Shown: one piece after another, positions 7,337 through 61,483 of the stretch
Layout: the number at the start of each line of letters is the position of its first letter
Numbering within the stretch: position 1 is the stretch's first letter
The notes under the pieces: model-generated
Databases searched by the model: none
What the model saw: only the letters and a program-made list of their open reading frames with translations
What the model was told of the DNA's origin: nothing
Translations under genes and position numbers: made by a program
NCBI GenBank assembly: GCA_002499085.1
Contig: DAKD01000032.1
Span: forward strand, 1,315 to 65,314
Source: Methanomassiliicoccales archaeon UBA280
Lineage (GTDB): Archaea > Thermoplasmatota > Thermoplasmata > SG8-5
Direction of reading: 5' to 3'
Length of the DNA stretch: 64,000 bases

Positions 7337-7399
7337 ACCGCGCCACTGGGTGCCCTTCCTGGCGTAGGACTCGTTCCAGGCCAAGGGATACCGTTTCAT
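7337..7399 (-). pseudogene. Duplicated, diverged 5' end of the methyltransferase gene 6622-7269
   Basis: The minus-strand translation MKRYPLAWNESYARKGTQWRG matches codons ~8-28 of the intact gene (RKTYPLAWDTSYARKGTQWRGG). Most nucleotide differences are synonymous. The frame then runs into a repeat hairpin and stops at the real ATG. Confidence 0.7.
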
Positions 7400-7757
7400 G
7401 TCCAACTTTTCCGGGGAACCGCCCATGCACCCAATAAGCTGCTCATACGATATATCAGTTCCTCCGGGAACAACCGACCTTCAACATCTCATCGAACTCA
7501 TGAGAAACGAAAAAAGATAGAGAGAGTCGTTCCCATGCCAGAGCCTTCAAATTCGTACCCCGGCCTCACGGCCGAGGCTTTTTGTGTTGAGCTGCCCTCA
7601 TGAACGCTTTGCGAAGGGGCACTAGCTCACAAAATGATGTGAAACCCTGGCCTTACAGCCAGGGCATGCCGCTCAAAGTCGACGAACATGGCGCCAGGTA
7701 AGGCGGGGCAGGGTTGCCCCTTCACATTATATCTGAATCAGAAGTTTGGATACTGGA

Positions 7758-7964
7758 TTAATCCAACCAAGCCCCGTCTTCCTTGTATTCCTGGTACAGG
7801 CGCACGCCAGTGAGGCAGAGCAGGAGGACGAACAGTATCAGCAGGAGTACAGGCCCTGCGGACCAGTCGCCCCTGAGAACAAGCAGTACTATTGAAACAG
7901 TCCAGAGGGCTGCGGCGGACACGCTGGCGATGCGCCCCTTCGGGTTCAGGAGTATGACTGTCAT
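7758..7964 (-). CDS. Small membrane protein (68 aa, two hydrophobic helices)
   Basis: ATGA start/stop overlap with the upstream methyltransferase (7961-7964). Hydrophobic segments AAALWTVSIVLLVL and GPVLLLILFVLLLCL. Confidence 0.6.
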   Translation of the reverse strand: MTVILLNPKGRIASVSAAALWTVSIVLLVLRGDWSAGPVLLLILFVLLLCLTGVRLYQEYKEDGAWLD

Positions 7965-8698
7965 GGGGCCTCCTTCTCCAGCACCATCGCATATATCCCG
8001 TCCTTGCCGTTGAAGTATTTCCTCACCTTCCAGCCCGTACCGGAAAGGATGGCCTCCAGCTCCTGCTTGGACACCATCAGGTAATCGAACCAGGGCGTGC
8101 AGTACCTCTGGTAGCGGACGCGTATCCTGACCTGGCCCGACATCCTGCCCCTAGCGCGGTTCCTTGCCTGGTACTCCAGATGGTAGTCCCTGTCAGTCTG
8201 GTAGACATCGATGGTCTCGGCGATTATGTAGGCGTCCGGCGATGTCATCCCGTGGAAACGGCGCAGCAGCGTCTTGGCCCTCCTGGGGTTGGCGAACAGC
8301 CCGAAGTTGTTGCCCAGCATCAGAATGGTGTCGAAAGTGCCCAGGCCCGGTTTAATCTCGAGAATGTCCATGAGCATTGTCTTCTTCAGGCCCTGCTCAC
8401 GGCAGCATTTCAGGGCCATGGGCGAGTTGTCGATGCCCAGGATGTCCAGGCCTTTCGACTGGAGGTACAGCGAGTGCCTGCCCCCGCCGCAGCCTATGTC
8501 GAGGACACGGCCTTTCGCATGGCGGACAGCCCTCTGCAGGTGCACTGGCCAGTCCCCGAATTTTGCGAGATATGACTTGGGGCCCTCGGACACGTCGATG
8601 TAGCCGTCGTCCCTCTCGACCACTTCCTCCACGTCGATTCCGTGGAAATAGTCGTACATGCCGTACCCGAACGCGTCCTGGTGATCCTTCAGGGGCAT
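7961..8698 (-). CDS. Class I SAM-dependent methyltransferase
   Basis: Motif I VLDIGCGGGRHSLYL, with downstream ILGIDNS and ILMLGNNFG. Confidence 0.85.
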   Translation of the reverse strand: MPLKDHQDAFGYGMYDYFHGIDVEEVVERDDGYIDVSEGPKSYLAKFGDWPVHLQRAVRHAKGRVLDIGCGGGRHSLYLQSKGLDILGIDNSPMALKCCREQGLKKTMLMDILEIKPGLGTFDTILMLGNNFGLFANPRRAKTLLRRFHGMTSPDAYIIAETIDVYQTDRDYHLEYQARNRARGRMSGQVRIRVRYQRYCTPWFDYLMVSKQELEAILSGTGWKVRKYFNGKDGIYAMVLEKEAP

Positions 8699-8779
8699 CT
8701 TACACCGGGAGTGAATTCCCTTTGCATTATTTAAACACGACCCTGAGGCTTCGGACCCTGGCTTCCGAGGGAGTGTCTC

Positions 8780-11700
8780 TCAACCGGTCCCGGTTTCTTT
8801 GCGGCATCTCGACGCCCAAAAAGACTTGCCAAGGGCCTCGAAGCATTCGGCGGCCTTGAGGAAACTAGCTGCAGCCTTCGTGTCCTCTCCCATGGCTTTC
8901 CTCAGCATGCCAATCTCGAAATATACCAGGCCGGTTTGATCTCTGTCCGAGGCGGAGAGGACCAAATTTAAGGCCCTATCCAGCTCGCTTGCGGCACTGT
9001 CCCATTCGCCCTTCGCCCTGTGAATGGCGCCGAGGATTCTGCGCCCTGCCGCTTCCCCGCTGGTCGAGTTCAACTCAGAGGAGATTTCTATAGACTCCCT
9101 GGCGCATGACAGGGCTTCGGCTAGGTTGCCCAGCCCCAGATACGTTTCGGCCATTCCAATATTGAAAAACGCAAGCCCGTGCCTGCTTCCCAAATCTTTT
9201 TCGATGTCGAGGCCCCGCTTGTAGCGCTCAAGGGCTTCGAGCCATTCATGCCTGAGCCTGTGTGCCTCGCCCAGATCCCTGAGGGATTCGGACACCCCCG
9301 AAAGCTGGCCCAATTTCTCACGTATGGCCAGGCTGCGGCTGTGAAACTCGAGGGCCTTATCCAGTTCCCCGAGGTCCACATGTATATTTCCCATGTTGTG
9401 CAAGGACAGGGCTATTGCTTGCTGGTTCCCCAGCGCTTCGTGCATCCTGAGGCCGTTCATTGTGTGTTCCAACGCGCTGTCAAGGTTGCCGAGTCTGTGA
9501 TATATATCGCCGATATTGGTCAGGGATGTAGCTATGCCTGATTTATCCCCTATTGACTCGAGTATGGCAAGGCCCTGTTTGTGGAACTCGAGCGCTTTCA
9601 CGATATCGCATTTGGCAGTGTAGACATTGGCTATATTGCTCAGCGATGTAGCTATACCCTGCTTGTCACCGAGCTTTCTCCTGATCGCAAGACTGCGCTC
9701 GTAGCATTGTATGGACTCATCCAGCTCACATTTGTCCGAATACACGACACCGATATTATTTAGCGATGCTGAGATGCCTAGCTTATCCCCAATCTTTTCC
9801 CTGATCGCCAGACTCTCTTTATAATTCTGGAGGGCTTTGTCCAGCTCCCCTCTGCTATGATGCACTATCCCTATGATGTTGTGGGAATTTGCAACTGCCA
9901 ATTGGTCATTGGCCAGTTTCATCATTTTAAGGCTTTGCTCGGCGAACTGGAGTGCCGAGTTGAAATCGCCTCTGGCGATATATATCGGGCTCAAAGCCCG
10001 GAGTGCCTCACCCAAGTCGGCCTGGGAGTCCAGTTCCTTGAAAAGGTTTATCGCATCGTGGAATAATGGCATGGCCTTATCATAGTTCCCCTTCTTCCAT
10101 TGGACCGAGCCCTCGGCGAGCATTATGCGCCCCATCTCAAGGCACTTGACGCCGCCAAGGGAGTCCCTGGCAATCGCCAACGTCTGAAGGGCTTCTTCGA
10201 ATTCACCCCGCTTATCCAGAACAGTCCCTGTTTTTCGAAGGGACCTGGCCCGGGTTTCGGCTTCTGCCGAGGACTCCATCTCCCTCGAATAATATCGAAT
10301 GGCATTCTCGTAATCGCCTTCTATAGTATAGATGTCGGCAATTTTTTCAAATATTACAGGTTGTTCGTCCGGCCGTAGAAAGTCCAATGCATTCTCGTAC
10401 GATTGTATCGCGTCCTGGTTGACGAAAGCCTGTGCAGCCTTATCCCCGGCGAGAACAAGATATTGCCCTGCACGCTGGTCCCGGGCGCGTGAATAATGAT
10501 GGGCGATCTCTTCGATACGGTCCATCTCCCCGGCTTCCTGCAAGCCGACAAGTATATCGCCGACTTGCCTATGGTATTCGCTCCTCAACTCATCAGAAAT
10601 CTCCTGGTACAGCACCTCGCGGACCTTTGCATGGTCGAACCTATATTTGGATTTCATGGCATGTATCAGCCTATGGGTTCGCTCGATCTCACCCAGATGC
10701 TTCAGCAAAGGAATTTTCTTGACCTCGGAGATTCTTTCCAGCAGGTCGGCGGAGAACTCTTCGCCGATTACTGAGGCTAATCCGAGGAGGTCCCTCTGGT
10801 CGCCCGTGATCCTGTCCAGCCGCCGCTGCACGACGTCAACAATCTTAGTCGGCAGCGCCAAGCTGCCTGGGTCCTTTGCGACAATCCATCTGCCGGACCC
10901 GTCGCGCACGATCGCCCCCTCATCCGCCAGAACCTTCAGCACCTCGATGATGAAGAAGGGTGTGCCTCCCGTCTGCTTATGTATCCCATGAAGGAAATTC
11001 TCGTCGAACCCGTTCGGGCCCAAGGTGAAGGTGATGAGATTTCCAGTCTCATTCTCATTGAACCTCTCAAGTTCAATTCTGTGGAATAGCCCTTCCCTAC
11101 CCATGTTCTGCATTGCAGCTTCCAGGGGATTCGGTTTTCCGTCCCGGGCTCGTACTAAGTCCTCGGGGCGATAGGCCCCAAGAATTAATACCCTGTTTTC
11201 CCTCGTATTGCGGGCAATGTAATGCAACAGCCGCAGGCTTGTGGGGTCACACCATTGGAGATCATCCACAAAAATGATCAGAGGCCATTCTGATGAAAAC
11301 CTTTGCAGACCGATGAGGACGTTGTCGAACAGGTTCTCCTGCTTCAGGCGGGGTTTGTCCAGAATATTCGAACCATTGTACTTGCCTGAATCGATGAACC
11401 AGGCCAGCTTCGGGATTACGAACTCAGATTCGGAGGTATCACCGCGCCAGCCGTCCAGCTTTCCGTCCAATTTTATGAGCAGCTGTTTCATGTCATCGAT
11501 GAGGAATTCATTCTCCGTCCCCTCGAGCACCAGACTCAACGAGAGGGTGCCGCGCTTGCTGAGCATTATCTTGTACTGCCCGTAACCGATGGAGTTCAGG
11601 CTACCTTCCCGGGAGTGTGTCATTTTTGAGAGTGAGTCCCTCATGAAAGTGCCAACTGCGGACAGCATTGAGGCGAAAATCTCAGAGTCGAGGTCTGTAT

Positions 11701-12112
11701 CCCCCCTCTCGGCTTTCGCGAGCAGTATGCCGGCCTCGTTCATCAGGTAGACGGACAGTACCCTTGGTGTAGATACCTTGGAGATGAGATGGGCAAGACC
11801 TGCTGTCCGTAGCATTTCACTGAAGGGCATCAGGGGTTCGAGACTTTCGGCAAGACACCATCCTTTAAGGACCTTAAAGCTTGAGCACTTGGGATTGTTC
11901 TCCAGTTCAGACACAAGTCTGGTCTTTCCTATGCCAGCTTCGCCCGCAAGCAATATCATTGACCCATGCGACTCTATTGCGCTGTCCAGGGCAGCCTCAA
12001 GTCTAGAAATCTCTGATTTTCTCCCGATAAAATTCAGATTATCGCGAATCTCATCACTTTGCAGGAATCCCACCGAGGGAGAATACCATTTTTCCTTATT
12101 ATGCTTATGCAA
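8780..12112 (-). CDS. STAND-like P-loop ATPase with Roadblock/LC7-like insert and long C-terminal TPR array
   Basis: Walker A GEAGIGKTRL. Walker B LIIFVDDLQWCD lies ~200 aa later. The insert VLSVYLMNEAGILLAKAERG...FASMLSAVGTFMRDS...LSLSLVLEG resembles Roadblock/MglB. More than 12 TPR units follow (e.g. NIGVVYSDKCELDESIQCYERSLAIRRKLGD). Confidence 0.8.
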   Translation of the reverse strand: MHKHNKEKWYSPSVGFLQSDEIRDNLNFIGRKSEISRLEAALDSAIESHGSMILLAGEAGIGKTRLVSELENNPKCSSFKVLKGWCLAESLEPLMPFSEMLRTAGLAHLISKVSTPRVLSVYLMNEAGILLAKAERGDTDLDSEIFASMLSAVGTFMRDSLSKMTHSREGSLNSIGYGQYKIMLSKRGTLSLSLVLEGTENEFLIDDMKQLLIKLDGKLDGWRGDTSESEFVIPKLAWFIDSGKYNGSNILDKPRLKQENLFDNVLIGLQRFSSEWPLIIFVDDLQWCDPTSLRLLHYIARNTRENRVLILGAYRPEDLVRARDGKPNPLEAAMQNMGREGLFHRIELERFNENETGNLITFTLGPNGFDENFLHGIHKQTGGTPFFIIEVLKVLADEGAIVRDGSGRWIVAKDPGSLALPTKIVDVVQRRLDRITGDQRDLLGLASVIGEEFSADLLERISEVKKIPLLKHLGEIERTHRLIHAMKSKYRFDHAKVREVLYQEISDELRSEYHRQVGDILVGLQEAGEMDRIEEIAHHYSRARDQRAGQYLVLAGDKAAQAFVNQDAIQSYENALDFLRPDEQPVIFEKIADIYTIEGDYENAIRYYSREMESSAEAETRARSLRKTGTVLDKRGEFEEALQTLAIARDSLGGVKCLEMGRIMLAEGSVQWKKGNYDKAMPLFHDAINLFKELDSQADLGEALRALSPIYIARGDFNSALQFAEQSLKMMKLANDQLAVANSHNIIGIVHHSRGELDKALQNYKESLAIREKIGDKLGISASLNNIGVVYSDKCELDESIQCYERSLAIRRKLGDKQGIATSLSNIANVYTAKCDIVKALEFHKQGLAILESIGDKSGIATSLTNIGDIYHRLGNLDSALEHTMNGLRMHEALGNQQAIALSLHNMGNIHVDLGELDKALEFHSRSLAIREKLGQLSGVSESLRDLGEAHRLRHEWLEALERYKRGLDIEKDLGSRHGLAFFNIGMAETYLGLGNLAEALSCARESIEISSELNSTSGEAAGRRILGAIHRAKGEWDSAASELDRALNLVLSASDRDQTGLVYFEIGMLRKAMGEDTKAAASFLKAAECFEALGKSFWASRCRKETGTG

Positions 12113-12246
12113 AGTAAGTTGTCGGGGGTGCCAGGCTATGACCGTTAATTCTTTACCAGTGTCTTATAACCTCTAAAATTGGCCCAACCATTTATTAAAT
12201 AGAGATATTTATATATCTATAACACTATTAAGGGTCAGGTGTCAAA

Positions 12247-12621
12247 ATGACCGAAGAAAACACGGAAATGCTGGCAGAGCTGAAGAGGATAAGGAGGCTG
12301 CTCACGCCGGCCCCGGAGCCGAAAGGGCGCAAGGGGCTGATGGGCGAATTCCTTGACTTCGTTGGAAAGTACAAGATACTGGGACTTGCGGTAGCGTTTG
12401 TCATAGGCATGTACCTGGGCGAGGTCGTGAAAGGGCTGGTGCAGGGGCTGCTGATGCCTCTGATACAGCAAATCTTGGATCCAATGGTCCAAGGAGACCT
12501 TGTGGGAAGCTTCGATCCCTACAAACCCGGCCTGTTCATCATGGCTCTCATAACCTTCATCATCGTCTGCATCGTGGTCTTCATTGTGATGAAGATGGCC
12601 AAGAAATGGAAGATCGAATAA
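12247..12621 (+). CDS. mscL: Large-conductance mechanosensitive channel MscL family protein (with ~30-aa N-terminal extension)
   Basis: FLDFVGKYKILGLAVAFVIGMYLGEVVKGLVQGLLMPLI aligns by eye with the MscL TM1 consensus. A second TM helix and a basic tail follow. Confidence 0.7.
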   Translation: MTEENTEMLAELKRIRRLLTPAPEPKGRKGLMGEFLDFVGKYKILGLAVAFVIGMYLGEVVKGLVQGLLMPLIQQILDPMVQGDLVGSFDPYKPGLFIMALITFIIVCIVVFIVMKMAKKWKIE

Positions 12622-12713
12622 ACGTATATTCGATCCAAGGCAATGCGGTTTCACAGCGATGAAACTGCAAACGACATGCCCCGCCTGTGAGGGCGGGGTT
12701 TCATTTTAATAGC

Positions 12714-13048
12714 TGTATATGTGACAGGGCATTCTCAAGCATTTTGTTGCTCTGTATTTGGGGGCCTCGCCTGTAAGGGCGAGGGGGTCGGGTACTCACC
12801 TGACAGGCCTGAGTCAGGTGATATTTGAAGCTCTAACAAGACTTCGTCTCCCTCATCCTTCGAATTGCGCATTATAAACGAAGTTTGAAAAATCGTCCCC
12901 ATGCCAGAGCTGAGAAAATTCCTCCCCGGCCTTACAGATGAGGTTTCCTGTTAAAAACGCCCGAAAATGCACTCAACAAGCGCACTCAAAATGGGGTAAA
13001 TTTGAAACCCCGCCCTCCGTTCCAAATGTCCCGCAGGACTTTGGATGC
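12714..13048. repeat. Modular hairpin-rich dispersed intergenic repeat, copy X (related copies at 29592-30153, 7275-7670, 61657-61740)
   Basis: Shared blocks: TGTAT..GTGACAG.GCATT..TTTGTTGCTCT; GGGGCCTCGCCTGTA; GGGTC.GGTACTC + hairpin; TTCGTCTC.CTCATCCTTCG; AGTTTGAAA..TG.CAGAGC; CCGCCCTCCGTTCCAAATGTCCCGCAGGACTTTGGATGC. Confidence 0.8.
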
Positions 13049-13319
13049 CGCAAAAATGAGTGCTCCCCAAGCTAAAGCATGGGGTATCCATTAATTGTCT
13101 TCACCCTGAATTTCGTGATTATTTACCGCCAGTTACTCATTCAGGCAGATTCGAAAATGTTTGGAGCATACTGACATCGTGGGGAGCACTTTAATTGAAC
13201 AATTTCTCGCATTGGAATTGCATAAAAACGCCCTTATCCGCAGACTTAAAAGTCGCGGTATGCGGGCGAGAACATGTTCAATCATCCGGGGCATGCCGCA
13301 TTAGTATGTCCGAAAACGC

Positions 13320-15068
13320 CTATTTCTTCTGCATCTCGTAGAGCGCCAGCATCTCCTCGGAGTTGGTAGCGTCCTCCGGAGCCTTGTCCTTCCGTATGAT
13401 GCCAGTGAATCGGGGAAACCTGATGGCCAGGCCCGAACCTTTCCTCACGGCTTCCCACGCGCAGGTGTGTATGGGCGAGAGCGTTATCTCTGCGCCTTTG
13501 ACTTCCATCACCAGGCTGGGCTCGAACCAGAAGTCGGCCTTCATGGTGCTTCTGACCAGCCTGTGGGGCTTGCCTCCCTTCAGCGGCTCCAGCATCCCGG
13601 GCAGCGCTGCAAGCATTTCATCGTCGAAGCCGGTTCCGAGTTTTGTGACTGTCTCGAATCGCCCGTCTTCCCGGTTATACACTGCCATGAGCAGGGCCCC
13701 GTAAGCCCCGGCCCGCTTTCCCCTTCCGGAGAATCCTCCGACCGCGACAAGGTCGACAGTGTCGTTCATCTCCGATTTGTAGTCGCGCTTGAACTTTATC
13801 CAGTTCCAGCCCCTGGAGCCGGCGCGGTAGAACGAATCCTTGGCCAGGGATTTGGCCATCACACCCTCGCCGCCCTTGGCCACCACCTTGCTGAAGTACT
13901 CCTCGGCCTCTTCCGGGTCATCGGTGACAAGAACCTCGGCCAGCTTCACACGTTCCGACTCCCGGATACAGGACTCCAGTTTCTTCCGCCGGTTCGTGTA
14001 CGGGGTCTGCGTGAGGTCCTTTCCGTTGAGGTAAAGGCAGTCGAACAGGAACAGCATCACCGGAAAATCCTCCACAGCCGAAGTAAGTTCGTACTTGCGG
14101 CCCCTGCGGCGGCTGACAGTCTGGAAAGGCAGCATCTCCCCGGTGTTAACATCCACTGGCACGCATTCCCCTTCCAGGACCGCGGCCTTGCCTTTGAAGG
14201 CCTTGGCCAGAAGCCCGACCAGGTCCGGGAACTGGTCTGTCGTATTTTCCAGCTGCCTCGTGAACAATTCCACCTTCCCGCCCTTGATGTGGGCCTGTAT
14301 CCTGAGGCCGTCGTACTTGTACTCGAATGCGCATTTTCCGCCGAGCTTCTCCAATATCTCGGGTATGCCCGGAAGCCTTTCCGCCAGCATGGCCCTGAGA
14401 GGTATGCCGACCTCCAGCTCTATCTCATCCAGCCCGACGAGTCCCTTGGAGGCTAGAAGCTTCGCCACCCTGGCCAGGTCCGAGCAGGTGTTGTAGGCAT
14501 GCTCGACCCTGTCCCTGTCGTCCTTGGTGGCATAGGTCACGGCCAATGCGTCGATGAGCGTCATGTCGGCAATGCCGAGCCTCAGCTTTCCCGCAAGAGT
14601 CCGGGCTATGAATTTGGCTTCTACGGGTGAGGAATCGTGCATCAGCTTGGCCAGGAGCTTCAGCTTCAAATCCTGCGAGCCCGCGCCCGAGGCAGAGGAA
14701 ATATGAACCAAGCTGTCGAAGACATTGTCAACGCTCAGAGTGTCCGTGAAAAGGGAGGTCTGCTTCCTCCTGGACACTGCCTCGAAGGCCACTGTGCCCA
14801 GGTCGCCCTCCTTCTGCCATAATCTCTGGATTTCAGCTTCGCTGACGCGGGTGGCCTCGTAGATGGCCCTGAGGGCCAGCTTCTCGGCGATTCCGAGCTC
14901 CTGGCCTGCAAAATCGGGCGCGAGCTTGCCCTGGGTGAGGAGCACGACCTTCTCGATGTCGCCAGGCGGGATTTTCCTGAAAAGCTCCGCCAGCAGGTCG
15001 GTCATATCCAGGCGCTTGCTTGTGGCCTCGATTCTTGAGTAGGCTTGGGCAAGCGTGAGGTAGTCCAT
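13320..15068 (-). CDS. lig: ATP-dependent DNA ligase
   Basis: Adenylation motif EYKYDGLRIQAH (KxDG), plus EGVMAK and WIKFKRDY motifs. The 582-aa length is typical of archaeal Lig. Confidence 0.95.
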   Translation of the reverse strand: MDYLTLAQAYSRIEATSKRLDMTDLLAELFRKIPPGDIEKVVLLTQGKLAPDFAGQELGIAEKLALRAIYEATRVSEAEIQRLWQKEGDLGTVAFEAVSRRKQTSLFTDTLSVDNVFDSLVHISSASGAGSQDLKLKLLAKLMHDSSPVEAKFIARTLAGKLRLGIADMTLIDALAVTYATKDDRDRVEHAYNTCSDLARVAKLLASKGLVGLDEIELEVGIPLRAMLAERLPGIPEILEKLGGKCAFEYKYDGLRIQAHIKGGKVELFTRQLENTTDQFPDLVGLLAKAFKGKAAVLEGECVPVDVNTGEMLPFQTVSRRRGRKYELTSAVEDFPVMLFLFDCLYLNGKDLTQTPYTNRRKKLESCIRESERVKLAEVLVTDDPEEAEEYFSKVVAKGGEGVMAKSLAKDSFYRAGSRGWNWIKFKRDYKSEMNDTVDLVAVGGFSGRGKRAGAYGALLMAVYNREDGRFETVTKLGTGFDDEMLAALPGMLEPLKGGKPHRLVRSTMKADFWFEPSLVMEVKGAEITLSPIHTCAWEAVRKGSGLAIRFPRFTGIIRKDKAPEDATNSEEMLALYEMQKK

Positions 15069-15106
15069 GCTAAGCAGAAGGAAATGAGAATATTTAATCT
15101 ATGGCG

Positions 15107-15229
15107 TCAGAGCATTCCCGCCAACCTAGCCATGTCCGTCTCCGCGACATGTGTGTATATCTGGGTTGTCTTGAGGTCTTTGTGGCCGAGCAGTTTCTTG
15201 ATATGGACTGCACCCCTTTTCACGGACAC
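15107..15229 (-). pseudogene. Tyrosine recombinase/integrase, C-terminal ~40-aa remnant
   Basis: Translation VSVKRGAVHIKKLLGHKDLKTTQIYTHVAETDMARLAGML* contains the LLGH...TT..Y(T)H box with the catalytic Tyr. It is bounded upstream by an in-frame TAG, and no remainder of the gene is present. Confidence 0.75.
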
Positions 15230-15586
15230 CTATAATAGTGAATAACGCATGAAACGTGAAGATATACAAAACAGACACTTGAACGTCGAACCCCCCACGA
15301 CGGACGAACTGGACGACGAACCCCGTAAGAAAAAACTACGGCAACAACGGAATTTACGGCAGGGTTTCAAACTTCTTCGGCACTTCGTGCCTCGACCCCG
15401 CTGCGCTCTCGCTTCGCTCGGGAAAGATAACATGCGGCTATCTGGCTTCGGGGGTTGCACCCCCTACGACCCAAATTCCCCTTCGGGGAACTTCAGATAG
15501 CCCCACCCGTTATACGAAACCGTGGATGGGTGTTTATTAGCAACAATATATTAGGCGATACCGTGCATCCCATCCAATCAAAAGGA

Positions 15587-17055: not shown

Positions 17056-17149
17056 CGAGTAGGATAGCACAATTATCATATATATGTCTTTTGATGTCAC
17101 CAGATTATCATAAATGTAATTTAGCGACAATAAAGTACATATATTATCA

Positions 17150-17299
17150 TGCAATTATCTCGTCCAGAACGATCCTGACCATCTCGACTTCGACTGCGAG
17201 TACCTGTTTGATTAATTCAACAAGAAGGTCAGTCATCTCCAGGCGCTTGCTGGTCGCCTCGATTCCCTCGTAGGTTCGGGCAAGGGTGAGGTAGTCCAT
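17150..17299 (-). pseudogene. Displaced, diverged 5' fragment of the DNA ligase gene
   Basis: MDYLTLARTYEGIEATSKRLEMTDLLVELIKQ compared with the intact lig MDYLTLAQAYSRIEATSKRLDMTDLLAELFRK. After ~32 codons similarity is lost and a stop follows. Confidence 0.8.
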
Positions 17300-17353
17300 G
17301 GCAGGGAGATTGGGCTGAGAATATTTAATTGTGAGGAATGCCATGCGCCCGCT

Positions 17354-21068: not shown

Positions 21069-21103
21069 CTTAGCTTTTTTATTGTTGGGATTCGCGCCTC
21101 GAG

Positions 21104-21312: not shown

Positions 21313-21383
21313 CTGCGCCGACTACCGTAATGTGTTGAATGCATCTGTTATCAGTTGATGGCTATGCATTCGACCATGGCCGG

Positions 21384-21522: not shown

Positions 21523-21642
21523 GGTAATCAGCAATCTGGCAGCGCCATGATTACCGATAGATAGCTTTTAATACCGGCGCTGTCTAGATGCATTGTCCAG
21601 AAGATGAGAGATTCATCATCGTGGACAACAGGAGAAAAAACA

Positions 21643-48658: not shown

Positions 48659-48661
48659 TCG

Positions 48662-50700: not shown

Positions 50701-50791
50701 TGCTTAAGGGGGCTTCGCATGTCAAGTGACAAAAAACACAATTAGTGTCTTATAGCGAGCGAAGCCTTTATATAGAATACTTTTCATACAG

Positions 50792-53302: not shown

Positions 53303-55924
53303 GTCGCTCCCGCCCGCCTACGAGGCATTGAAACACGCTCCCGGACCTGGAGGGCAGGCTGAGCGCAAGTCGCTCCCGCCCGCCTACGAGGCATTGAAAC
53401 CGAAGTACTTCTGAAGGATCGCGGTTTTTTCCTCGTCGCTCCCGCCCGCCTACGAGGCATTGAAACGTAGAGTGACGGGACATCGCACCCCAGCACCCCC
53501 GTCGCTCCCGCCCGCCTACGAGGCATTGAAACCTGGGCGAGCAGGGCCTGGAGCTTCAGCATGATCGTCGCTCCCGCCCGCCTACGAGGCATTGAAACTT
53601 CTTGTTGAAGGTTATCGAGGTCTTGCATTCCTGTCGCTCCCGCCCGCCTACGAGGCATTGAAACGATAGAGCTAACCTACAGCGATGCCATGGGTAATGT
53701 CGCTCCCGCCCGCCTACGAGGCATTGAAACTGTCAATCCGAAGATAGAATCACTCTAGCCCCGAGTCGCTCCCGCCCGCCTACGAGGCATTGAAACTGCA
53801 ACAGAAGCTTGTCCTCCTGGAGCTCGGCCCGTCGCTCCCGCCCGCCTACGAGGCATTGAAACAAAATATCGGGCACACCCAGCGCCATACTGTACAGTCG
53901 CTCCCGCCCGCCTACGAGGCATTGAAACACGACGCAGTTCATGAAGTACGTCAACCCGACATGTCGCTCCCGCCCGCCTACGAGGCATTGAAACACGACA
54001 ACAGGATCAGCTCCGCAATCAACCAGACAGGTCGCTCCCGCCCGCCTACGAGGCATTGAAACCACACTATACGCCAGCAGACTACTGCATGAAATCGGGT
54101 CGCTCCCGCCCGCCTACGAGGCATTGAAACGATGAAACCGCCATTGACTGTTGAGATTGTGGCATGTCGCTCCCGCCCGCCTACGAGGCATTGAAACAAT
54201 GTCTCTAGGTGCTTCAGCTGCCTCTGGGAGCCGAGTCGCTCCCGCCCGCCTACGAGGCATTGAAACAAGGTCAGCTGGAACCACACGAAGCTGGCGAAGC
54301 GTCGCTCCCGCCCGCCTACGAGGCATTGAAACTTGGAAAAGGACAATTTCATGGGCATTGCAATCCGTCGCTCCCGCCCGCCTACGAGGCATTGAAACCT
54401 GTTGGCTGAGGAATTCTGCCCGATAGTATTTTGTCGCTCCCGCCCGCCTACGAGGCATTGAAACCAGAAATGATTAGAAGTTCCCCCAATCAGTTATCGT
54501 CGCTCCCGCCCGCCTACGAGGCATTGAAACGAGCGCATGCCGGGGAACCTGAACATCTGTTTGAGTCGCTCCCGCCCGCCTACGAGGCATTGAAACAAGT
54601 GTAATGTCCAACCAGGCCCAGCCATAACGGGTCGCTCCCGCCCGCCTACGAGGCATTGAAACGTGGTCATGGGGATTGCCCCCTCTGAGGTTCGGGAGTC
54701 GCTCCCGCCCGCCTACGAGGCATTGAAACCAGGTTGTCCGCGTATGTGTCAATGGCGCTCTTGGTCGCTCCCGCCCGCCTACGAGGCATTGAAACTGCAG
54801 GACCTTGTTGTACGTCGACACGACGGCCAGTCGCTCCCGCCCGCCTACGAGGCATTGAAACGACAGATCCAGCGGGGATATGACCAATCCGACGGGTCGC
54901 TCCCGCCCGCCTACGAGGCATTGAAACGCCAAGTCATCCGCCGACATGCTGATCAGAACTAGTCGCTCCCGCCCGCCTACGAGGCATTGAAACGTATAAG
55001 GTGGCCACGAATCAGAAACTCATGGCTGCGTCGCTCCCGCCCGCCTACGAGGCATTGAAACACGGGCCTCTCCTGGCTGCACACCGAACCCATCAGTCGC
55101 TCCCGCCCGCCTACGAGGCATTGAAACATGCCCTTGGCTATTTCTCTGGCCGTTTGCCCCGGTCGCTCCCGCCCGCCTACGAGGCATTGAAACAAGGTCC
55201 TGTTAGTCTATCATAACGACAGACTAAGGTCGCTCCCGCCCGCCTACGAGGCATTGAAACGACTATTGCACCAGCAACGCGACCGGCCACAACTGTCGCT
55301 CCCGCCCGCCTACGAGGCATTGAAACAATCGACTCTGGGCGGGTGTTCGCTGGAATACTCGGTCGCTCCCGCCCGCCTACGAGGCATTGAAACTTAAATG
55401 CGCAAGGTGTTGTAAGGTATCCAGATATGGTCGCTCCCGCCCGCCTACGAGGCATTGAAACGATTTTGAAACGATAAGTTGTAAAGTAAGTACATGTCGC
55501 TCCCGCCCGCCTACGAGGCATTGAAACAACCAATTACCTCAAGATACCGATGTACCTCAGCGTCGCTCCCGCCCGCCTACGAGGCATTGAAACAAAGCTG
55601 GCGGGATAATACAGACGCCCGTACCAGGTCGCTCCCGCCCGCCTACGAGGCATTGAAACAATAAAAATAAACTGGTGTTCCCGACCCCATAGGGTCGCTC
55701 CCGCCCGCCTACGAGGCATTGAAACGAGCATGCGATAGAGTACACCAGCACAGACGGGTTGTCGCTCCCGCCCGCCTACGAGGCATTGAAACAGTATCCA
55801 GCCCACCCCATCCATGCAATTCACATGTCGCTCCCGCCCGCCTACGAGGCATTGAAACTGAAATAAGGGAGCGCGGCGCCCGCGATTACTCCGTCGCTCC
55901 CGCCCGCCTACGAGGCATTGAAAC
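53303..55924 (+). CRISPR. CRISPR array: 40 copies of the 32-nt repeat GTCGCTCCCGCCCGCCTACGAGGCATTGAAAC, with 39 spacers of 34-37 nt
   Basis: All repeats were located by hand (first at 53303-53334, last at 55893-55924). No variant repeat was noticed. The GTCGC...ATTGAAAC repeat type is shared with I-C/I-G-like families. Orientation is inferred from the ATTGAAAC 3' end and the leader next to cas2. Confidence 0.98.
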
Positions 55925-56586
55925 TAATAAAGGTGCAGCCCGTCCTCTACCTTGCCCAGCTCGATCGGCGTCGTGCGCTCCCCGACCATCGCGCCCTTCG
56001 AGTTGGCTATCATGCAGGCCCCCACCTGGCCCGTGCCGTAATTGGCCGTGCATATTGCCGGCTTGAGGCCCAGCACCCGTTCCATGAGTTCCATCTCGGC
56101 CGATGACGTGTGCGGGTGGCATATCAGTCCCTTGTTCGTGGCCACGGCTGCCGAGCCGACTGTGCTGTATCCTGCGACTGTGCCCCTTTCGACGGGAACG
56201 CCGAGCGCTTTGGAAATCAGGTTTATGGTGGAGTCCTCGAAATCCGGATGCACTATCGCGCCGTTGTCATTGGCCAGAATGTTGTTGCCCATGGCATTGT
56301 GCCTTTCCGCAATCCTTGTTACCTTGACATGCTGCGCGATCCTCTTTATCTCGTCGTCGAACATGGATTGGGCGGCCACCGCGCCGTTGGAGTTCATGCG
56401 GATGAGCGAGCCCAGCGTGCTGCTGCCGTCCACGGACATCCTGATCACGTTTTCCACTCCGAGGTACTTTGAGACTCTCTCGGGAAAATCAGCCTGCGTG
56501 GCATGCGGGACAACGGCAAGCGTCTCACTCGAGGCGCAGAAAACACCCACATAGGGGTTGCCGAAAATCATTCCCTTGCCCAGCAT
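55924..56586 (-). CDS. eif6: Translation initiation factor 6 (aIF6)
   Basis: FGNPYVGVF start and five-fold pseudo-symmetric repeats (SNGAVV, NDNGAIV, TNKGLICHP, NSKGAMVG). Confidence 0.92.
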   Translation of the reverse strand: MLGKGMIFGNPYVGVFCASSETLAVVPHATQADFPERVSKYLGVENVIRMSVDGSSTLGSLIRMNSNGAVAAQSMFDDEIKRIAQHVKVTRIAERHNAMGNNILANDNGAIVHPDFEDSTINLISKALGVPVERGTVAGYSTVGSAAVATNKGLICHPHTSSAEMELMERVLGLKPAICTANYGTGQVGACMIANSKGAMVGERTTPIELGKVEDGLHLY

Positions 56587-56597
56587 GAGAGAATCGC

Positions 56598-56882
56598 CTA
56601 CTCGTCAGGCAGCAGAACTTCCACCAGGTCCTCGCCCTCCACCCATGCGACCTTGAGCGTGACCTTGTTCGGGGGGTTCTCTATTCCCCTGGCCCATATC
56701 ATCTCATTGACTTCCTTGTCGATCCAGACGTTCTCGGGCTCTGCCTTCCTGTGCCTCACGACATATTCCCTGATGAGCTTGATGGCCTTCGGGGCCCTCT
56801 TTGTCCTGGGACATCTCAGAAGGTCGCGCAGCGGGATGGTGTAAACCTGTTCCTTGAATTCCTTTTCTTTGTCGTCTGCCAT
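56598..56882 (-). CDS. rpl31e: 50S ribosomal protein L31e
   Basis: YTIPLR...RTKRAPKAIKLIREYVVRH...VWIDKEVNEMIWARGIENPP. Confidence 0.93.
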   Translation of the reverse strand: MADDKEKEFKEQVYTIPLRDLLRCPRTKRAPKAIKLIREYVVRHRKAEPENVWIDKEVNEMIWARGIENPPNKVTLKVAWVEGEDLVEVLLPDE

Positions 56883-56892
56883 TTCAATCCCT

Positions 56893-57048
56893 CTAGACCT
56901 TCAGCCTGTTCCTCCGCCACGACCTCTGCTTGGGATGGCGCATGAACCTGCGGTTCGTCCTCTGGATCACCCATGCCGGAACGCGCCTGTTCGAGTTTGT
57001 GGCCTTGCAGAGCCTCAGTTTCCTTGCGAATGGTTTGTTTCTTGCCAT
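56893..57048 (-). CDS. rpl39e: 50S ribosomal protein L39e (51 aa; below the ORF-track cutoff)
   Basis: Manual translation gives [51 protein letters not shown]. Located in the conserved S19e-L39e-L31e-aIF6 cluster. Confidence 0.9.
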
Positions 57049-57057
57049 CTTATCCCT

Positions 57058-57402
57058 CTATCTTCTTGTTATCTTGATCTCCCGTTTCTCGGGCGTGAGC
57101 CTTTCCAGGATCTGGACGAGGCTTGCATCGTCAATCACCGCATGCAGTTTTCCCTGCTGCGCCAGCATTATCAGCTGGTTCTCCACGGCCACGGCGAAGT
57201 CCGCTCGGGCCGTCCTCAGCCTTGCCAGGCGCTCCCTGGCATCGGGGGCGAGTATCTGCCGCAGGACCGCCTGCCTCTGCGCCTCGTACTGGGCATCGGC
57301 CTGGGCCTGTGCGGCCTGCTGGACCCCGTCGTCAGCCTGGTCCTGCTGGAGGGCCTCGAGCTTCCTGCGCCTTATCTCCTGAAGCTCCTTGTCGTCGTCC
57401 AT
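57058..57402 (-). CDS. PDCD5/TFAR19-like DNA-binding protein
   Basis: LRQILAPDARERLARL...ENQLIMLAQQGKL...IDDASLVQILERL, plus its conserved position between S19e and L39e. Confidence 0.85.
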   Translation of the reverse strand: MDDDKELQEIRRRKLEALQQDQADDGVQQAAQAQADAQYEAQRQAVLRQILAPDARERLARLRTARADFAVAVENQLIMLAQQGKLHAVIDDASLVQILERLTPEKREIKITRR

Positions 57403-57410
57403 ACGACCGC

Positions 57411-57869
57411 CTACATTCGGTATTTTGCGAGCCTTGGGTTATCCTTGGCCTGCTCGGTGAATATGGCATGGGATGTGTTGTCCAGCAGCTTCTGACCCTG
57501 GGCAGTGATCATGCGGCCTTTCTTCTTCTGGTTGGATACCAGGCCGGATGATTCAAGTTGCTGCAACGAGAGCCTGATTATGGACCTGCTTCCGGACCAG
57601 GCATGGTACGGGGACGAGCCCTTGTCCACAGGGCCGCCGAACTCGGCTGCCAGCTTTTCCGTGCCGATGGGGCCCATCATGTAGACCTTCCTGAGCACGG
57701 CCGCAACGCGGGTGTACCACCAGTCCGGCGTTTCCGGAGCCTTCTCCCTGTGAATGCCTGTCTTTACGAAGGCGGACCATTCGGGCGGCTGAATCGTGTC
57801 CTTCTTCTTGAGCTCCTCTGCTATGCTCGAAATGAGCTTGTCCGCGGGTACATCGTAAGCGGTGGTCAT
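57411..57869 (-). CDS. rps19e: 30S ribosomal protein S19e
   Basis: TAYDVPADKLI...PPEWSAFVKTG...WWYTRVAAVLRKVY. Confidence 0.93.
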   Translation of the reverse strand: MTTAYDVPADKLISSIAEELKKKDTIQPPEWSAFVKTGIHREKAPETPDWWYTRVAAVLRKVYMMGPIGTEKLAAEFGGPVDKGSSPYHAWSGSRSIIRLSLQQLESSGLVSNQKKKGRMITAQGQKLLDNTSHAIFTEQAKDNPRLAKYRM

Positions 57870-58106
57870 TTTTTCCCCCAGTATATTATATATGGACTGG
57901 AAGTAGTGCCCCTAAAGAGCATGGGGTATTTTATGTTTGTCCTGTTCCATGCGTATTTGGACCTGTGTGTCGGGCAGCATGGCATCTTAAATATTAAGTA
58001 TTCGTCTGGCAATCAGGGTCGCACAGAAGGGATGCCTGAGGGATGCGCGGCAATGGATCCCCATTGGCCGGCACGTCAGGCCCCGGACATTGCTCTGGGG
58101 TGACAC

Positions 58107-60116
58107 ATGACAGATATCGCCGAGAAGCTGGGCAAGCAGCAGAAAGAGATTTCCATAGCGGAATTTTTCGAGAAGAACAAGCAGATACTGGGCTTCGACT
58201 CCCAGACCAAGTCTCTGATAACGGCCGTCAAGGAGGGAGTGGACAACTCGCTGGACGCCTGCGAGGAGGCAAGGATCCTTCCCGACATTATCGTCGAGGT
58301 CACCGAGACAGAGAAGGGCGAGTTCAAGATCGTCATAGAGGACAACGGCCCCGGAATAGTGAAGAAGCAGATTCCCAATGTTTTCGGCAGGCTTCTCTAC
58401 GGCTCAAGGTTCCATGCCATACGCCAGTCGAGGGGACAGCAGGGAATCGGCATTTCCGCGGTGGTCATGTACAGCCAGCTTACGACGGGCAAGCCCGCAT
58501 TTATAATGTCCAAGATCGGGACCGAGGAAGTGGCCCATTATGTGAAGCTGGTTCTGGATATAAAGAAGAACAGGCCGGACATCATAGAGGAGGACTTCAG
58601 GATGTGGGACGGCAAGGCCCACGGCACCAGGCTGGAGGTCTATGTCAAGGGCAGGTACATCACAGGCAAGCAGTCCATTCTTGAGTATCTCAGGGCCACG
58701 GCCATAGTCAATCCCCATGTCCAGATAACGTTCAGAGACCCCATGGGCGGTGTCATCAGCCTGCCGCGGGTGAGCGAGGATCTGCCCAAGGAGACGGTCG
58801 AATCAAAGCCCCATCCGGAAGGGATAGAATTGGGCCAGCTCATGAGCATGGCCAAGGTCAGCGAGCACCGCAAGCTCACTGCCTTCCTGACGCATGAATT
58901 CTCGAGGGTGAGCCCGCGTGTGGCCAAGGAGATCTGCGACAAGGCCCTGGTGCCGGAGAACAGGAGCCCGAAACGCATGTCCCTGGAGGAGGGAGCCGCA
59001 TTGCTGAAGGCGATAGGGGAAGTCAAGATAATGGCGCCGAAGGCTGACTGCCTCACTCCGATCGGCGATGTGCTTATCAGGAAAGGCCTCAGGAACGTCC
59101 TGGAGGGTCTCAAGCCCGGATTCTACGCGCCCCCCATTTCCAGGGAGCCGAAAGTCTACTCAGGCCACCCGTTCCTCATAGAAGTGGGGATCGTTTACGG
59201 CGGGCAGCTTCCAAAGGATGCGCAGGTCGACATTCTCAGGTTCGGAAACAGAGTGCCGCTGCTCTACCAGCAGGGCGCCGACGTCATAACGAAAGCAATT
59301 GCGGAGGTAGACTGGCGCAGGTACGGGCTTGAGCAGAGGGGCGGCAAAGGCTTACCTTTCGGGCCTGCGATAATTCTGGTGCATGTGGCATCGAGCCAGC
59401 TGCCTTTCACGTCCGAAGCCAAGGAGGCGATAGCCAACCTGGACCCGATAAGGGAGGAGATAGTCAGGGCGCTCAGGCTGTGCGCCCGGAACCTGAAAGT
59501 GCATCTGGGCAAGAAAGCCAGGCGCTCCAAGACCCAGGAGAAGTTCGACATCGTCCAGCTTCTCATCCCGGAGATTGCCAAGAAGGCGGCCAGCATTGTC
59601 GGCAAGCCTGTTCCTGCGCTCGGGAAGACAGTGACTGGCATCATGAACGTTATATGGATCGATGACAAGGTGGAATACGCCAAGGGCCGCCACAAAGTGA
59701 CCATCAACATACACAACTACATGGCCACGGGCCAGAAGTTCAGCGTGCACAGCATTGTCCCGGGGGCCAACCTGGACAGGAAGAAGATGTCACCGGAGCC
59801 AGACAGCGTGAACGGGGATAAACTCACTTGGAACCTCAAGAGGCTGGCCACGACAGAAATCCAAACGATAACCTTTGAACTCGCGGGTCTGGACCAGGAC
59901 GGATACCAGGAGGCCGAGATATTTGTCAGCGGAATAGACCATTCCAAGGTGATAGGCGCCGAACCCCTTCCGGGAGACTGGGACCTGGACGGCACAGGCC
60001 AGTATTCGCTGTTCTCATTCGGGGAAGAGGCTGAGGAGGAGGTCGCCGAAGAGGAGGACGACGAGAACGGCGTGGACTATGACGAACAAACCGAGGTGAT
60101 CTCCGATGATGAATGA
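58107..60116 (+). CDS. top6B: DNA topoisomerase VI subunit B
   Basis: [17 protein letters not shown] start and Bergerat-fold motifs ([21 protein letters not shown]). Acidic C-terminal tail. Confidence 0.95.
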
Positions 60117-61209
60117 CCCGAGGAACCACAGGGCCGTGGAGGAGCTGTACAAGATAGCGGACGAGATATACAACCAGATCGACAGGGGCCAGATACCCAG
60201 GATGAGCATACCCCTCAGGTCCAAGAAGAACATACAGTTCGCACCGCGGAAAGGTGTCTGGAAGTACGGAAACCTGCACGGGGTGAGAAGCGCCAAGAAG
60301 ATGACGGGCGCCTACATGCTCCTCAGGACGATGTACATGCTGGAGTTCATCAAGGACATGATAAAGGACCAGAAATCGTCCACGCTCAGGGAGATGTACT
60401 ACATCTCGGAGGGCTGGGGCCATGCCAAGTTCGGCTCCCAGGACGAGAGCAACAACCTGGCAGAGGACCTGGAGATTGTGACCACATGCATGAGGGAGGA
60501 CTTCAAGCTGCGGCCCGAGGAGGACGGGGCCAGGGTGATTGGCAACCTCACGCTGATGGAGACCAACCGAAAGGGAGAGAAGAAGAAGATCAACCTCAGG
60601 GACGACGTCGGGGATTCGGGCTACGGCATTCCCTTCAACGTCGAGAAGGACAAGATCAACCTGCTGGAAACCGACGCCAAGTTCGTTATCGCCATAGAAA
60701 CGGGCGGTATGTTCGACAGGCTGGTGGAGAACGGTTTCGACGAGGATTTCAACGCGATCATCCTGCATCTGAAAGGCCAGCCCGCCCGCTCGACCAGGCG
60801 GTTCATGAAGCGCCTCAACGAGGAGCTGAACCTCCCGATAGTGGTATTCACCGACGGAGACCCATGGTCCTTCAGGATATTCTCCTCCATCGCTTACGGC
60901 GCCATCAAGACCGCCCACATCTCGGAATACCTTGCCACGCCCACGGCCATGTTCGTGGGCATAACCAGCTCGGACATAATGAATTACGAGCTCCCCACCG
61001 ACAAGCTGAACGACAAGGACATAAAGGCTCTGCAGTCCGAGCTAACTGACCCAAGGTTCAAGGACCGGTTCTGGAAGGACGAGATAGAGCTCATGCTGAA
61101 GATTGGCAAGAAGGCGGAACAGCAGGCGCTGGCGAAGTACGGTTTGGATTTCGTGACCGATAAATATTTGCCCGAGAAGCTTACGGAATTGGGCATCCTC
61201 AAGCAATAG
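60106..61209 (+). CDS. top6A: DNA topoisomerase VI subunit A (Spo11 family)
   Basis: STLREMYY (catalytic Tyr region) and Toprim IAIETGGMF...FTDGDPWS. 11-nt overlap with top6B. Confidence 0.95.
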
Positions 61210-61387
61210 CCTGCATGGTCTTATGCAGGCAGGATGTACCGAGCGAGCATGCGAGGGCGAGTTTTCTCCGAAGATGGCGAAGCCGTCGAGGCCCCGCCGA
61301 CATCCGAAGGATTCGGTGAGGGTTTTGCTGAATATTTTTCTTTTGGAGCCCGAGCCGGCGCAGCGAGGTTAAAAGAAAAATACTCAG

Positions 61388-61483
61388 GCCGAGCAGCAGG
61401 CATTGGCGAAATACGGTCTCGACTTCGTTACGGACAAATACCTGCCTGAGAAGCTCACAGAATTGGGCATTCTGAAAGCATGA
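61388..61483 (+). pseudogene. Second, synonymously diverged copy of the last 31 codons of top6A
   Basis: Translates as [31 protein letters not shown], against [31 protein letters not shown] in the intact gene. About 17 nucleotide differences, nearly all at third positions. Confidence 0.8.

Follow-up and report, generated by a model that had tools for sequence, protein, structure and literature searches.

Displaced copies of gene termini in a 64-kb stretch of a Methanomassiliicoccales genome: candidate scars of integrative elements

We analysed a stretch of 64,000 nucleotides (nt) from Methanomassiliicoccales archaeon UBA280 (assembly GCA_002499085.1, contig DAKD01000032.1, positions 1,315-65,314 of the forward strand), here called the window; coordinates without a locus name are positions within it. 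Three genes in the window, encoding an ATP-dependent DNA ligase (lig), an S-adenosylmethionine (SAM)-dependent methyltransferase and the A subunit of topoisomerase VI (top6A), each have a second, displaced copy of one of their own ends, and an insert lies between the gene and this orphan terminus. The differences between the copies are overwhelmingly synonymous, which implies that both copies of each pair diverged while part of functional genes and, hence, that one copy per pair came from another lineage. We lean towards the view that the duplicated termini are the junctions of Campbell-type integrations, in which circular elements carrying a gene terminus entered the chromosome and then decayed.

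Results

The window has a G+C content of about 57% and contains genes for the ligase, topoisomerase VI A and B and archaeosine tRNA-guanine transglycosylase, a 5S rRNA gene and a clustered regularly interspaced short palindromic repeats (CRISPR) array. The nearest ligase genes are those of metagenome-assembled genomes (MAGs) of uncultured Thermoplasmata and Methanomassiliicoccales, the best having 87% amino acid (aa) identity. The window was compared with itself at the nucleotide and translated (tblastx) levels, gene identities were taken from Pfam, and the proportions of synonymous (pS) and non-synonymous (pN) differences were calculated by the Nei-Gojobori method. The self-comparison gave exactly three gene-terminus duplications, at the 5' end of lig, the 5' end of the methyltransferase gene and the 3' end of top6A, and so recovered the three that had been picked out in a sequence-only reading of the same DNA. 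All three share one layout: a full-length gene with complete Pfam domains is separated by 68 nt to 2.1 kb of inserted DNA from an orphan copy of its terminus, which has direct orientation. The mainly synonymous character of the differences, also claimed in that reading, was borne out (pS 0.46-0.89 against pN 0.04-0.11). The individual values were pS 0.46 and pN 0.11 for lig (28 codons), pS 0.89 and pN 0.07 for the methyltransferase, and pS 0.87 and pN 0.04 for top6A (31 codons).

The NCBI MAG GCA_002497815.1 also contains sequence identical to the window, as do several assemblies from JGI, ENA and Logan. The organism is present in six metagenomes (JGI 3300001580 and 3300002703; SRR5037159, SRR5036787 and SRR1313284-7; ENA ERZ27315071/2). 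Compared with contigs from other samples and assemblers, positions 1-17269 show one mismatch and positions 56106-64000 or 58062-64000 show none. Independent JGI, ENA, Logan and NCBI assemblies, drawn from several samples, contain the duplication structures at 99.99-100% identity, so that a chimera produced in a single assembly is excluded.

Of these events, the one at lig looks least decayed. The ligase gene in use (13320-15068, minus strand; 582 aa; Pfam DNA_ligase_A_N, DNA_ligase_A_M and DNA_ligase_A_C) is, over its whole length, closest to that of the nearest relative, locus L001. The in-use copy of the duplicated segment (14946-15098, minus strand) consists of the TATA-box region (ATTAAATATTCTCA) and approximately the first 40 codons, and it aligns with 17177-17329 over 153 nt at 73% identity, within which a core of 107 nt reaches 80% (E=8e-21). 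This second copy belongs to an orphan lig 5' terminus (17147-17329, minus strand), a 50-codon open reading frame (ORF) with about 45 lig-like codons and the native lig promoter, which faces a divergent Imm5-like gene (17354-17788). In the direction of lig the order is Imm5-like gene, orphan promoter with about 45 codons, AbiEi, AbiEii, a non-coding segment S, a recombinase remnant, 38 nt and the intact lig. These 38 nt hold a second TATA region.

The remnant (15107-15214, minus strand) is the last ~36 codons of an Xer-like tyrosine recombinase, ending in KKLLGHKDLKTTQIYTHVAETDMARLAGML and stop, the rest of the gene having presumably been deleted. It is 84-91% identical at the aa level (tblastn) to the C-termini of full-length 271-aa recombinases in the related loci L003 and L006, and its last 29 residues are identical to the recombinases P0125/P0127. 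The upstream side of the in-use lig segment abuts the recombinase stop codon, as it also does in L003 and L006. Segment S of the recombinase module (15396-15519, minus strand) is a Y-shaped hairpin with the basal stem GGCTATCTG/CAGATAGCC and is 80% identical to L003 1561-1681. Its fold has a z-score of -3.8 both in the window and in L144 (L144:1-110); the internal stems differ and the basal stem is invariant. The cargo consists of an AbiEii toxin gene (15587-16333, minus strand; Pfam AbiEii, E=1.6e-30, 107 bits against a cut-off of 22.5) and an overlapping upstream gene for an AbiEi-like antitoxin (16330-17154, minus strand; weak AbiEi_4 and AbiEi_1 matches, just below the cut-offs). AbiEii is thus preceded by AbiEi, the arrangement that defines an AbiE type IV toxin-antitoxin system. 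An AT-rich inverted repeat is located upstream, at 17080-17144, and the inserts hold no ORFs besides AbiEi, AbiEii and the recombinase remnant.

In L001 a homologue of the Imm5 gene is found directly upstream of lig without any insert, and 38 of the 40 nt upstream of the orphan are identical to those of the L001 lig. Hence L001 represents the empty site. Both flanks of the lig insert show synteny with this one relative, and the promoter of the orphan is the native one.

Some smaller features of this locus can be added. The basal stem of S is bordered by ATAAC and GTTAT, reminiscent of attC cores, and assembly L144 begins exactly at the S element. The promoter-proximal sequence of lig occurs as two types in the clade (window, L001-L007 and L031), TTCCTCAC..TTAAATATTCTCAGCCC and CTGACAACATAGGTTAAATATTCTC. 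The CTGACAACATAGGTTAAATATTCTC type lies directly 3' of the recombinase stop in L003 and is also found in L031, including CTGA, without a recombinase there; the sequence upstream of the L031 lig may be the scar of a lost element.

In L003 and L006 (the latter from JAUWNU01) the intact 271-aa recombinase ends 38 and 62 nt, respectively, before the lig ATG, and in L003 KilA-N and Schlafen/AlbA_2 genes lie upstream of it. The site beside lig is therefore occupied by the recombinase in three genomes, which are not each other's closest relatives. It had been suggested that intact elements should be sought in related MAGs; L003 and L006 do supply the full-length recombinase beside lig, but no orphan is present in their available flanks.

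Sequence similarity places the recombinase in the Xer/IntI branch: its matches to P. abyssi XerA, T. acidophilum XerA and V. cholerae IntI4 are about equally good (PDB 4a8e, 5hxy and 2a3v; E ~4e-34 each). It scores 177-197 bits with the NCBIfam model XerA_Arch, below the cut-off of 220, and 187-200 bits with the integron-integrase model TIGR02249, below the cut-off of 265. The match of the 271-aa protein to IntI4 (2a3v) is split into two stretches, and the TIGR02249 score (~190 against 265 bits) suggests that the IntI-specific domain is missing. A second paralogue of the recombinase, only 73% identical, is located elsewhere in the MAG that holds L003 (JAUSPR01), with a binning error being possible. 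An intact recombinase, P0127 (84% nt identity to the window remnant), co-occurs with the window organism in six samples at a different locus. Within the clade, recombinases that are 73-87% identical adjoin the ends of at least four different genes, namely the lig 5' end and the 3' ends of two unrelated GNAT acetyltransferase genes and one other gene. Furthermore, close relatives carry the recombinase at different positions, with the housekeeping synteny around it kept. The second paralogue, the other locus of P0127 and the varied neighbours make it unlikely that this is just the resident xerA, and neither a score above the equivalog cut-off nor a single conserved locus, the marks of archaeal XerA, was found. 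A scan of IMG/VR with the recombinase gave homologues of at most 40% identity over most of the length and one short fragment at 49%.

A palindrome, AACTCCTATTARGCG-(~11 nt)-CGCYTATTGGGAGTT, is located 60-110 nt upstream of the recombinase ATG in L003 (L003:2690-2945), L144, L146, L162, L163 and L006. It is conserved upstream of every recombinase copy whatever the neighbours, may be an operator or a dif/att-like site, and is absent from the window. All six independent assemblies with P0127 (L143-L145 and L159-L161) break 118-484 nt upstream of the gene, which suggests that this region is repeated or population-variable. All contigs stop before a cassette array could come into view. Two 63-nt repeats with RYYYAAC and GTTRRRY-like cores lie around the KilA-N gene in L003, and the fold of the site denoted U is not significant (z-score -0.9). 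In DPANN-like contigs, direct repeats of 49-76 nt surround restriction-modification cargo of 3.4-5.2 kb (L086:138-186/5332-5380 and L095:1-76/3402-3477); they are situated 0.5-1 kb upstream of recombinase homologues, with the recombinase outside the bracketed segment. More distant recombinase homologues, 52-56% identical (L084, L085, L092, L086, L091 and L093), stop 1-22 nt short of the start codon of a dihydroorotase-like, CoaE or FtsX-like gene, and the short flanks of these loci showed no orphan copies.

At the second locus lies the methyltransferase gene in use (6622-7269, minus strand; 215 aa; Pfam Methyltransf_11, Methyltransf_25 and Methyltransf_23), whose first 27 codons (7190-7269, minus strand) are the working copy of the duplicated 5' terminus. 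The insert is only 68 nt long (7270-7337, minus strand) and consists of a T5 run, a hairpin of the dispersed family D7 (TCCAAAGTCCC..GGGACATTTGGA) and a GGTGA motif, similar to a ribosome-binding site, 4 nt ahead of the ATG. Beyond it lies the orphan 5' terminus of 30 codons (MGGSPEKLDMKRYPLAWNESYARKGTQWRG; 7338-7426, minus strand). The nucleotide match between the copies is weak (53 nt at 75%, E=0.023), tblastx aligns 24 aa at 79%, and an identical 11-nt run, CAGTGGCGCGG, terminates both copies. The orphan N-terminus is identical in 26 of 30 residues to the closest homologues, P0242/P0243 (80% and 78% identical overall), whereas the N-terminus in use (MNAELDRKTYPLAWDTSYARKGTQWRG; MNAELDRKT..) resembles that of a more distant class of 215-aa homologues. 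The orphan is thus native and the end in use imported. In relatives, none of them close, the gap between the methyltransferase start and an upstream gene for a small membrane protein is about 30 nt, or the two overlap; in the window it is about 470 nt. The D7 hairpin of the insert folds with a z-score of -2.3, and further copies of D7 occur at 13010-13056 and 29888-29934.

On its other side, the methyltransferase gene is separated from a Trm5/TYW2-like gene by a low-GC (~44%) pyrroloquinoline quinone (PQQ)/beta-propeller gene (5225-6490). At this convergent junction L003 is empty and L006 has two toxin-antitoxin pairs. The methyltransferase / Trm5/TYW2-like junction is a variable hotspot.

The third duplication concerns the 3' end of top6A (60106-61209, plus strand; assigned by Pfam). 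The in-use copy, the last ~35 codons (61099-61209, plus strand), corresponds to 61373-61483, with 91 nt at 80% identity (E=2e-16). The insert (61210-61387, plus strand) is made up of a module similar to 100-150 of the window and a hairpin, H1 (TTTTTCTTTT..AAAAGAAAAA; 61328-61387), which ends exactly where the orphan 3' terminus of 31 codons starts (61388-61483, plus strand). All 30 residues are identical over a core of 90 nt that has 19 nt differences, and 30 of 31 are identical if the last codon is included. Over 93 nt there are 21 differences, 18 synonymous and three non-synonymous, the latter all in the last codon. Across the family, the C-terminal 30 residues of top6A hardly vary. The stop codons of top6A and of the convergent gene adjoin each other with a 0-nt spacer in L111 (92% identical), and in L115 the two overlap by 4 nt; in the window and the assemblies identical to it, the spacer is 689 nt.

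The convergent gene (61899-64000, minus strand) encodes a peptidase C1 / NosD beta-helix protein and runs off the window. A fourth orphan is probable at 61742-61774 (minus strand), where 33 nt, or 11 codons, resemble the 3' end of this gene (LADTVWVVDW-stop against VADSVWTVDW-stop in the real gene; tblastx E=8e-4 in a restricted search). It is flanked by a hairpin, H2 (61772-61830), which resembles H1. Their common pattern has no other match in the window, where 0 would be expected by chance, and each of the two hairpins precedes an orphan.

When 610 kb of related loci were scanned for short-range duplications on the same strand, one more case came to light, in L006 (L006:5470-6830). Here the methyltransferase 3' end is followed by a 550-nt AT-rich insert, an orphan 3' end (GLIILYFEVLARKVRHDGAEHRRESLVVVASP and stop) and a VapBC (VapC/AbrB-like) pair. 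The cargo of the insert is a DUF4258/DUF2283 toxin-antitoxin pair, and the two termini differ with pS 0.34 and pN 0.07. The gene is the same methyltransferase as in the window, affected at its other end. This fifth case indicates that the phenomenon is lineage-wide and associated with toxin-antitoxin cargo.

The sequence-only reading had described the inserts as containing dispersed hairpin repeats and had offered a recombination mechanism tied to these repeats as one explanation. The description does not fit the lig insert, from which the dispersed hairpin families are absent. The explanation does not hold up: the families occupy many intergenic regions without an orphan, and one repeat region (12627-12923) is 82% conserved at the orthologous L001 site. 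In the repeat-rich intergenic regions 12622-13320, 29400-30175, 1-1260 and 20971-21930 no orphan ends of neighbouring genes were found, and neither the H1/H2 pattern nor the D7 pattern nor the recombinase palindrome yielded an informative match in the related loci or the window.

The long intergenic regions 12622-13320, 29400-30175, 7430-7740 and 61484-61741 are composed of shared modules with many GC-rich hairpins of the form CCCCGCC-TGTGA-GGCGGGG. A separate 200-nt repeat (26484-26682 and 37554-37752, 89% identity) has terminal runs CTAGGGT / ACCCTAG and folds into a long hairpin (-48 kcal/mol, z-score -6.4); it looks like a miniature inverted-repeat transposable element (MITE) or a structured RNA. 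This repeat is intergenic and involves no gene end.

Discussion

Collectively our data reveal a recurrent arrangement in which a gene terminus is directly duplicated around an insert and one complete gene remains. Around foreign DNA, such a layout is what would be expected from a single crossover of the chromosome with a circle that bears the end of a gene, and we favour integrative elements whose attachment regions mimic gene termini. In the model that we propose, the mobile DNA is a circle with its own version of the terminus of the target gene. A single crossover between the two termini would leave the gene complete and, beyond the inserted DNA, a displaced partial copy, the two termini forming direct repeats. 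One of the copies would have evolved in the working gene of a related lineage before being carried in, which would account for the mainly synonymous differences. We infer catalysis by the recombinase, the circular intermediate, the positions of the crossovers and the later internal deletions. Target-derived direct repeats with an intact gene occur at all three loci, a recombinase remnant lies at the insert border at lig, and empty sites are seen in relatives for lig (L001) and top6A (L111 and L115).

The proposal of gene-end-targeting elements, which was already part of the sequence-only reading, stands as regards topology and, above all, at lig, where there are a recombinase remnant, AbiE genes, an empty site in L001 and full-length recombinases in L003 and L006. 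We regard the lig event as a probable decayed integrated element. The methyltransferase, top6A and probable convergent-gene events would be of the same kind. At the methyltransferase and top6A no recombinase or cargo is left, so that the label of element is extended to them by analogy; their interiors may have been deleted to 68-180 nt, or they may be miniature non-autonomous elements mobilised in trans.

Several observations weigh against this model. The methyltransferase and top6A inserts contain no recombinase, cargo or any ORF. The identical runs common to both junctions of each pair are only 8-15 nt long (ATTAAATATTCTCA and CATGGACTACCTCAC for lig, CAGTGGCGCGG for the methyltransferase, GAATTGGGCAT for top6A), and no common core motif is evident. 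The two lig coding copies are about equally far from L001, with the orphan decaying distally, and native status is clear only for the promoter side. For top6A it is the end in use that is nearer to L111 than the orphan (12 versus 4 informative sites), the opposite of the methyltransferase case, which suggests that the crossover may lie near the stop codon. The order top6A, its orphan, the convergent orphan and the convergent gene needs two events and a 258-nt spacer missing from relatives. Recombinases that are 82-87% identical adjoin different genes, which is unusual for strictly site-specific integrases. No orphan copies of the adjacent gene end were found in the available flanks of the recombinase loci L003, L006, L082-L101, L144, L146, L162 and L163, most of these contigs ending too early; the far element ends in L003, L006 and the other loci lie beyond the contig ends. 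Finally, the circular or excised form is postulated, none being among the observations.

An alternative that we regard as rather unlikely is the uptake of chromosomal DNA from a related species, with homology-anchored recombination in the conserved terminus and an illegitimate join, and with no dedicated element. The recombinase fragment would then be a neighbour's resident xerA dragged along with lig, and the toxin-antitoxin genes would be passengers. This would fit the XerA-like score of the recombinase (177-197 bits with XerA_Arch) and its 269-aa homologues, ~57% identical, across DPANN and Thermoplasmatota, as well as the origin of the imported termini in related lineages, the lack of a long identical core and the foreign look of the methyltransferase in use for about 45 residues, beyond the 30 codons of the orphan. 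Homology-anchored replacement, however, would swap a terminus and not duplicate it, whereas duplication is expected from a single crossover with a circle. The two recombinase paralogues in the MAG of L003, the varying position of the recombinase in close relatives despite conserved housekeeping synteny, and the occupation of the lig-adjacent site in three genomes that are not mutually closest also speak against uptake. In-situ tandem duplication or hairpin-promoted slippage, followed by divergence, is highly improbable. There are hairpins at or near three junctions (D7 in the methyltransferase insert, H1 and H2 by the orphans of the top6A region), but an orphan formed in place should have gained non-synonymous changes and frameshifts, and what is seen is near-saturation at synonymous sites with pN of 0.04-0.11; in addition, the lig insert is foreign DNA with a recombinase and AbiE, and the repeat families fill many orphan-free regions, one of them conserved in L001. 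A strain-mixture artefact, which had been named as a possible refutation, is hardly credible. Contigs of three assemblies each break at 61315/61316 and at 7669, but the full structures are 99.99-100% identical across samples and assemblers, both insert flanks are syntenic with the same relative, and copies that are 75-80% identical are not joinable via shared k-mers.

It has also to be considered whether the recombinase, being XerA/IntI-like, captures defence and toxin-antitoxin cassettes on an integron-like or Xer/dif-exploiting platform, with the duplications being cassettes at secondary sites. We find this improbable. The palindrome AACTCCTATTARGCG..CGCYTATTGGGAGTT conserved upstream of every recombinase copy, the two 63-nt attC-core-like repeats around KilA-N in L003, the conserved shape of the S hairpin, the breaks of all assemblies 118-484 nt upstream of P0127 and the direct repeats (49-76 nt) that bracket restriction-modification cargo near recombinase homologues in L086 and L095 would be consistent with such a platform. 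So would the cargo types (toxin-antitoxin, restriction-modification and acetyltransferase), which are reported to be the commonest functions of archaeal integron cassettes (PMC9668308). The 271-aa recombinase, however, matches IntI4 in two stretches only and reaches ~190 bits against a cut-off of 265, the U site has no significant fold (z-score -0.9), the palindrome is absent from the window, and integron cassette insertion does not create a target duplication of 70-150 bp. A bolder version, which we think quite unlikely, is that the XerA/IntI-like lineage of Thermoplasmatota and DPANN forms, with the palindrome and the S site, a capture-and-delivery platform that could also plant integrase-less cassettes of 70-550 bp into housekeeping termini by way of terminus-mimicking arms, and so swap promoters and coding ends between related species.

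The integration of terminus-carrying circles, which we prefer, has parallels in bacteria. Phage 21 and e14 bring an alternative terminus to icd of E. coli, so that the gene stays functional and the displaced native terminus is left as a diverged pseudo-fragment; these copies, too, differ largely at synonymous sites. Unlike the events in the window, they affect the 3' end only and involve a complete prophage with a lambda-type integrase. The cis-mobilisable elements (CIMEs) at the 3' end of fda in Streptococcus thermophilus are att-flanked, integrase-less remnants of decayed elements that might be mobilised in trans. The methyltransferase and top6A inserts and the toxin-antitoxin insert in L006 compare well with them, although CIMEs are bacterial and have short identical att repeats in contrast to the long diverged terminus copies seen here.

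In archaea, whose integrases had been noted in the sequence-only reading as best known for tRNA targets, the claim that protein-coding targets are new is too strong, as such integration has been described (PMC6563490). In Thaumarchaeota, 14 of 68 elements are situated in 3'-distal parts of genes that code for proteins, with the stop codon reconstituted; they were checked against empty sites in relatives, and tandem re-use of sites was noted (PMC6563490). As in the window, the end of a protein gene is targeted and rebuilt with element-derived sequence. The att sites of those elements have a median of 17 bp and are at 3' ends only (PMC6563490), whereas here the repeats are diverged coding sequences of 70-150 bp, two targets are 5' ends, one with its promoter, the host is Methanomassiliicoccales-like and most copies are scars. 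Casposons target ef-2 (PMC6563490; PMC8371274) and thus likewise place an archaeal mobile element at the end of a housekeeping gene, in that case the ef-2 3' end. A casposon was rejected for the window, where the inserts have no Cas1 casposase, terminal inverted repeats or short target-site duplication and the repeats are long diverged termini.

The lig-adjacent recombinase resembles the Xer/IntI branch represented by XerA/dif (PMC8371274), yet it falls below the curated cut-offs and at least one MAG has two copies; in contrast to XerA, its clade has varied neighbours and KilA-N, AbiE and Schlafen-like cargo. The SSV-type 'suicidal' integrases also leave an integrase fragment at the border of an integrated archaeal element (PMC7253208). 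In these the att site is inside the integrase gene, which is split, whereas here the duplicated segment (lig promoter and 5' end) is outside it and the fragment would reflect an internal deletion. Splitting of the SSV type was rejected: the duplication starts after the recombinase stop, no N-terminal part is found at the other border, and the genes in L003 and L006 are intact. The description of archaeal integrons requires the IntI-specific domain (PMC9668308), and integron membership was rejected on the integrase criteria (TIGR02249 187-200 against 265 bits, with that domain apparently missing). Novel aspects are the host lineage, the choice of targets (two of them 5' ends, of which one includes the promoter), arms that are long and diverged, the clade of Xer-like recombinases, and the density of four scars, one of them only probable, in 64 kb.

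If our reading is correct, essential genes, those for DNA ligase and topoisomerase VI, are recurrent landing pads for mobile DNA in this lineage, and species incidentally exchange the promoters and terminal codons of these genes. Targeting of archaeal protein genes would extend from 3' to 5' ends, including a promoter, and would involve a clade of Xer-like recombinases with toxin-antitoxin and defence cargo. An orphan terminus with high pS and low pN would then serve as a signature of decayed integration sites in integrase-less archaeal MAGs. Caution would be called for in annotation and phylogenies, since the termini of these genes can be xenologous.

Other features of the window

The break points at 61315/61316 and 7669, at each of which the contig ends of three independent short-read assemblies coincide, adjoin the hairpin H1 and a hairpin at 7643-7715, respectively; a drop in coverage at hairpins or population heterogeneity could be the cause. 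No tRNA genes are present in the window as targets. An Rfam scan of the window gave a single match above threshold, a stand-alone 5S rRNA gene at 39541-39662 (97 bits), and none in the inserts. The CRISPR array (53303-55924) has 40 repeats (GTCGCTCCCGCCCGCCTACGAGGCATTGAAAC) and 39 spacers of 34-37 nt, of which none matched any of the fetched loci. It adjoins a low-GC (41-45%) block of large ORFs at 43883-53010, presumably the cas genes.

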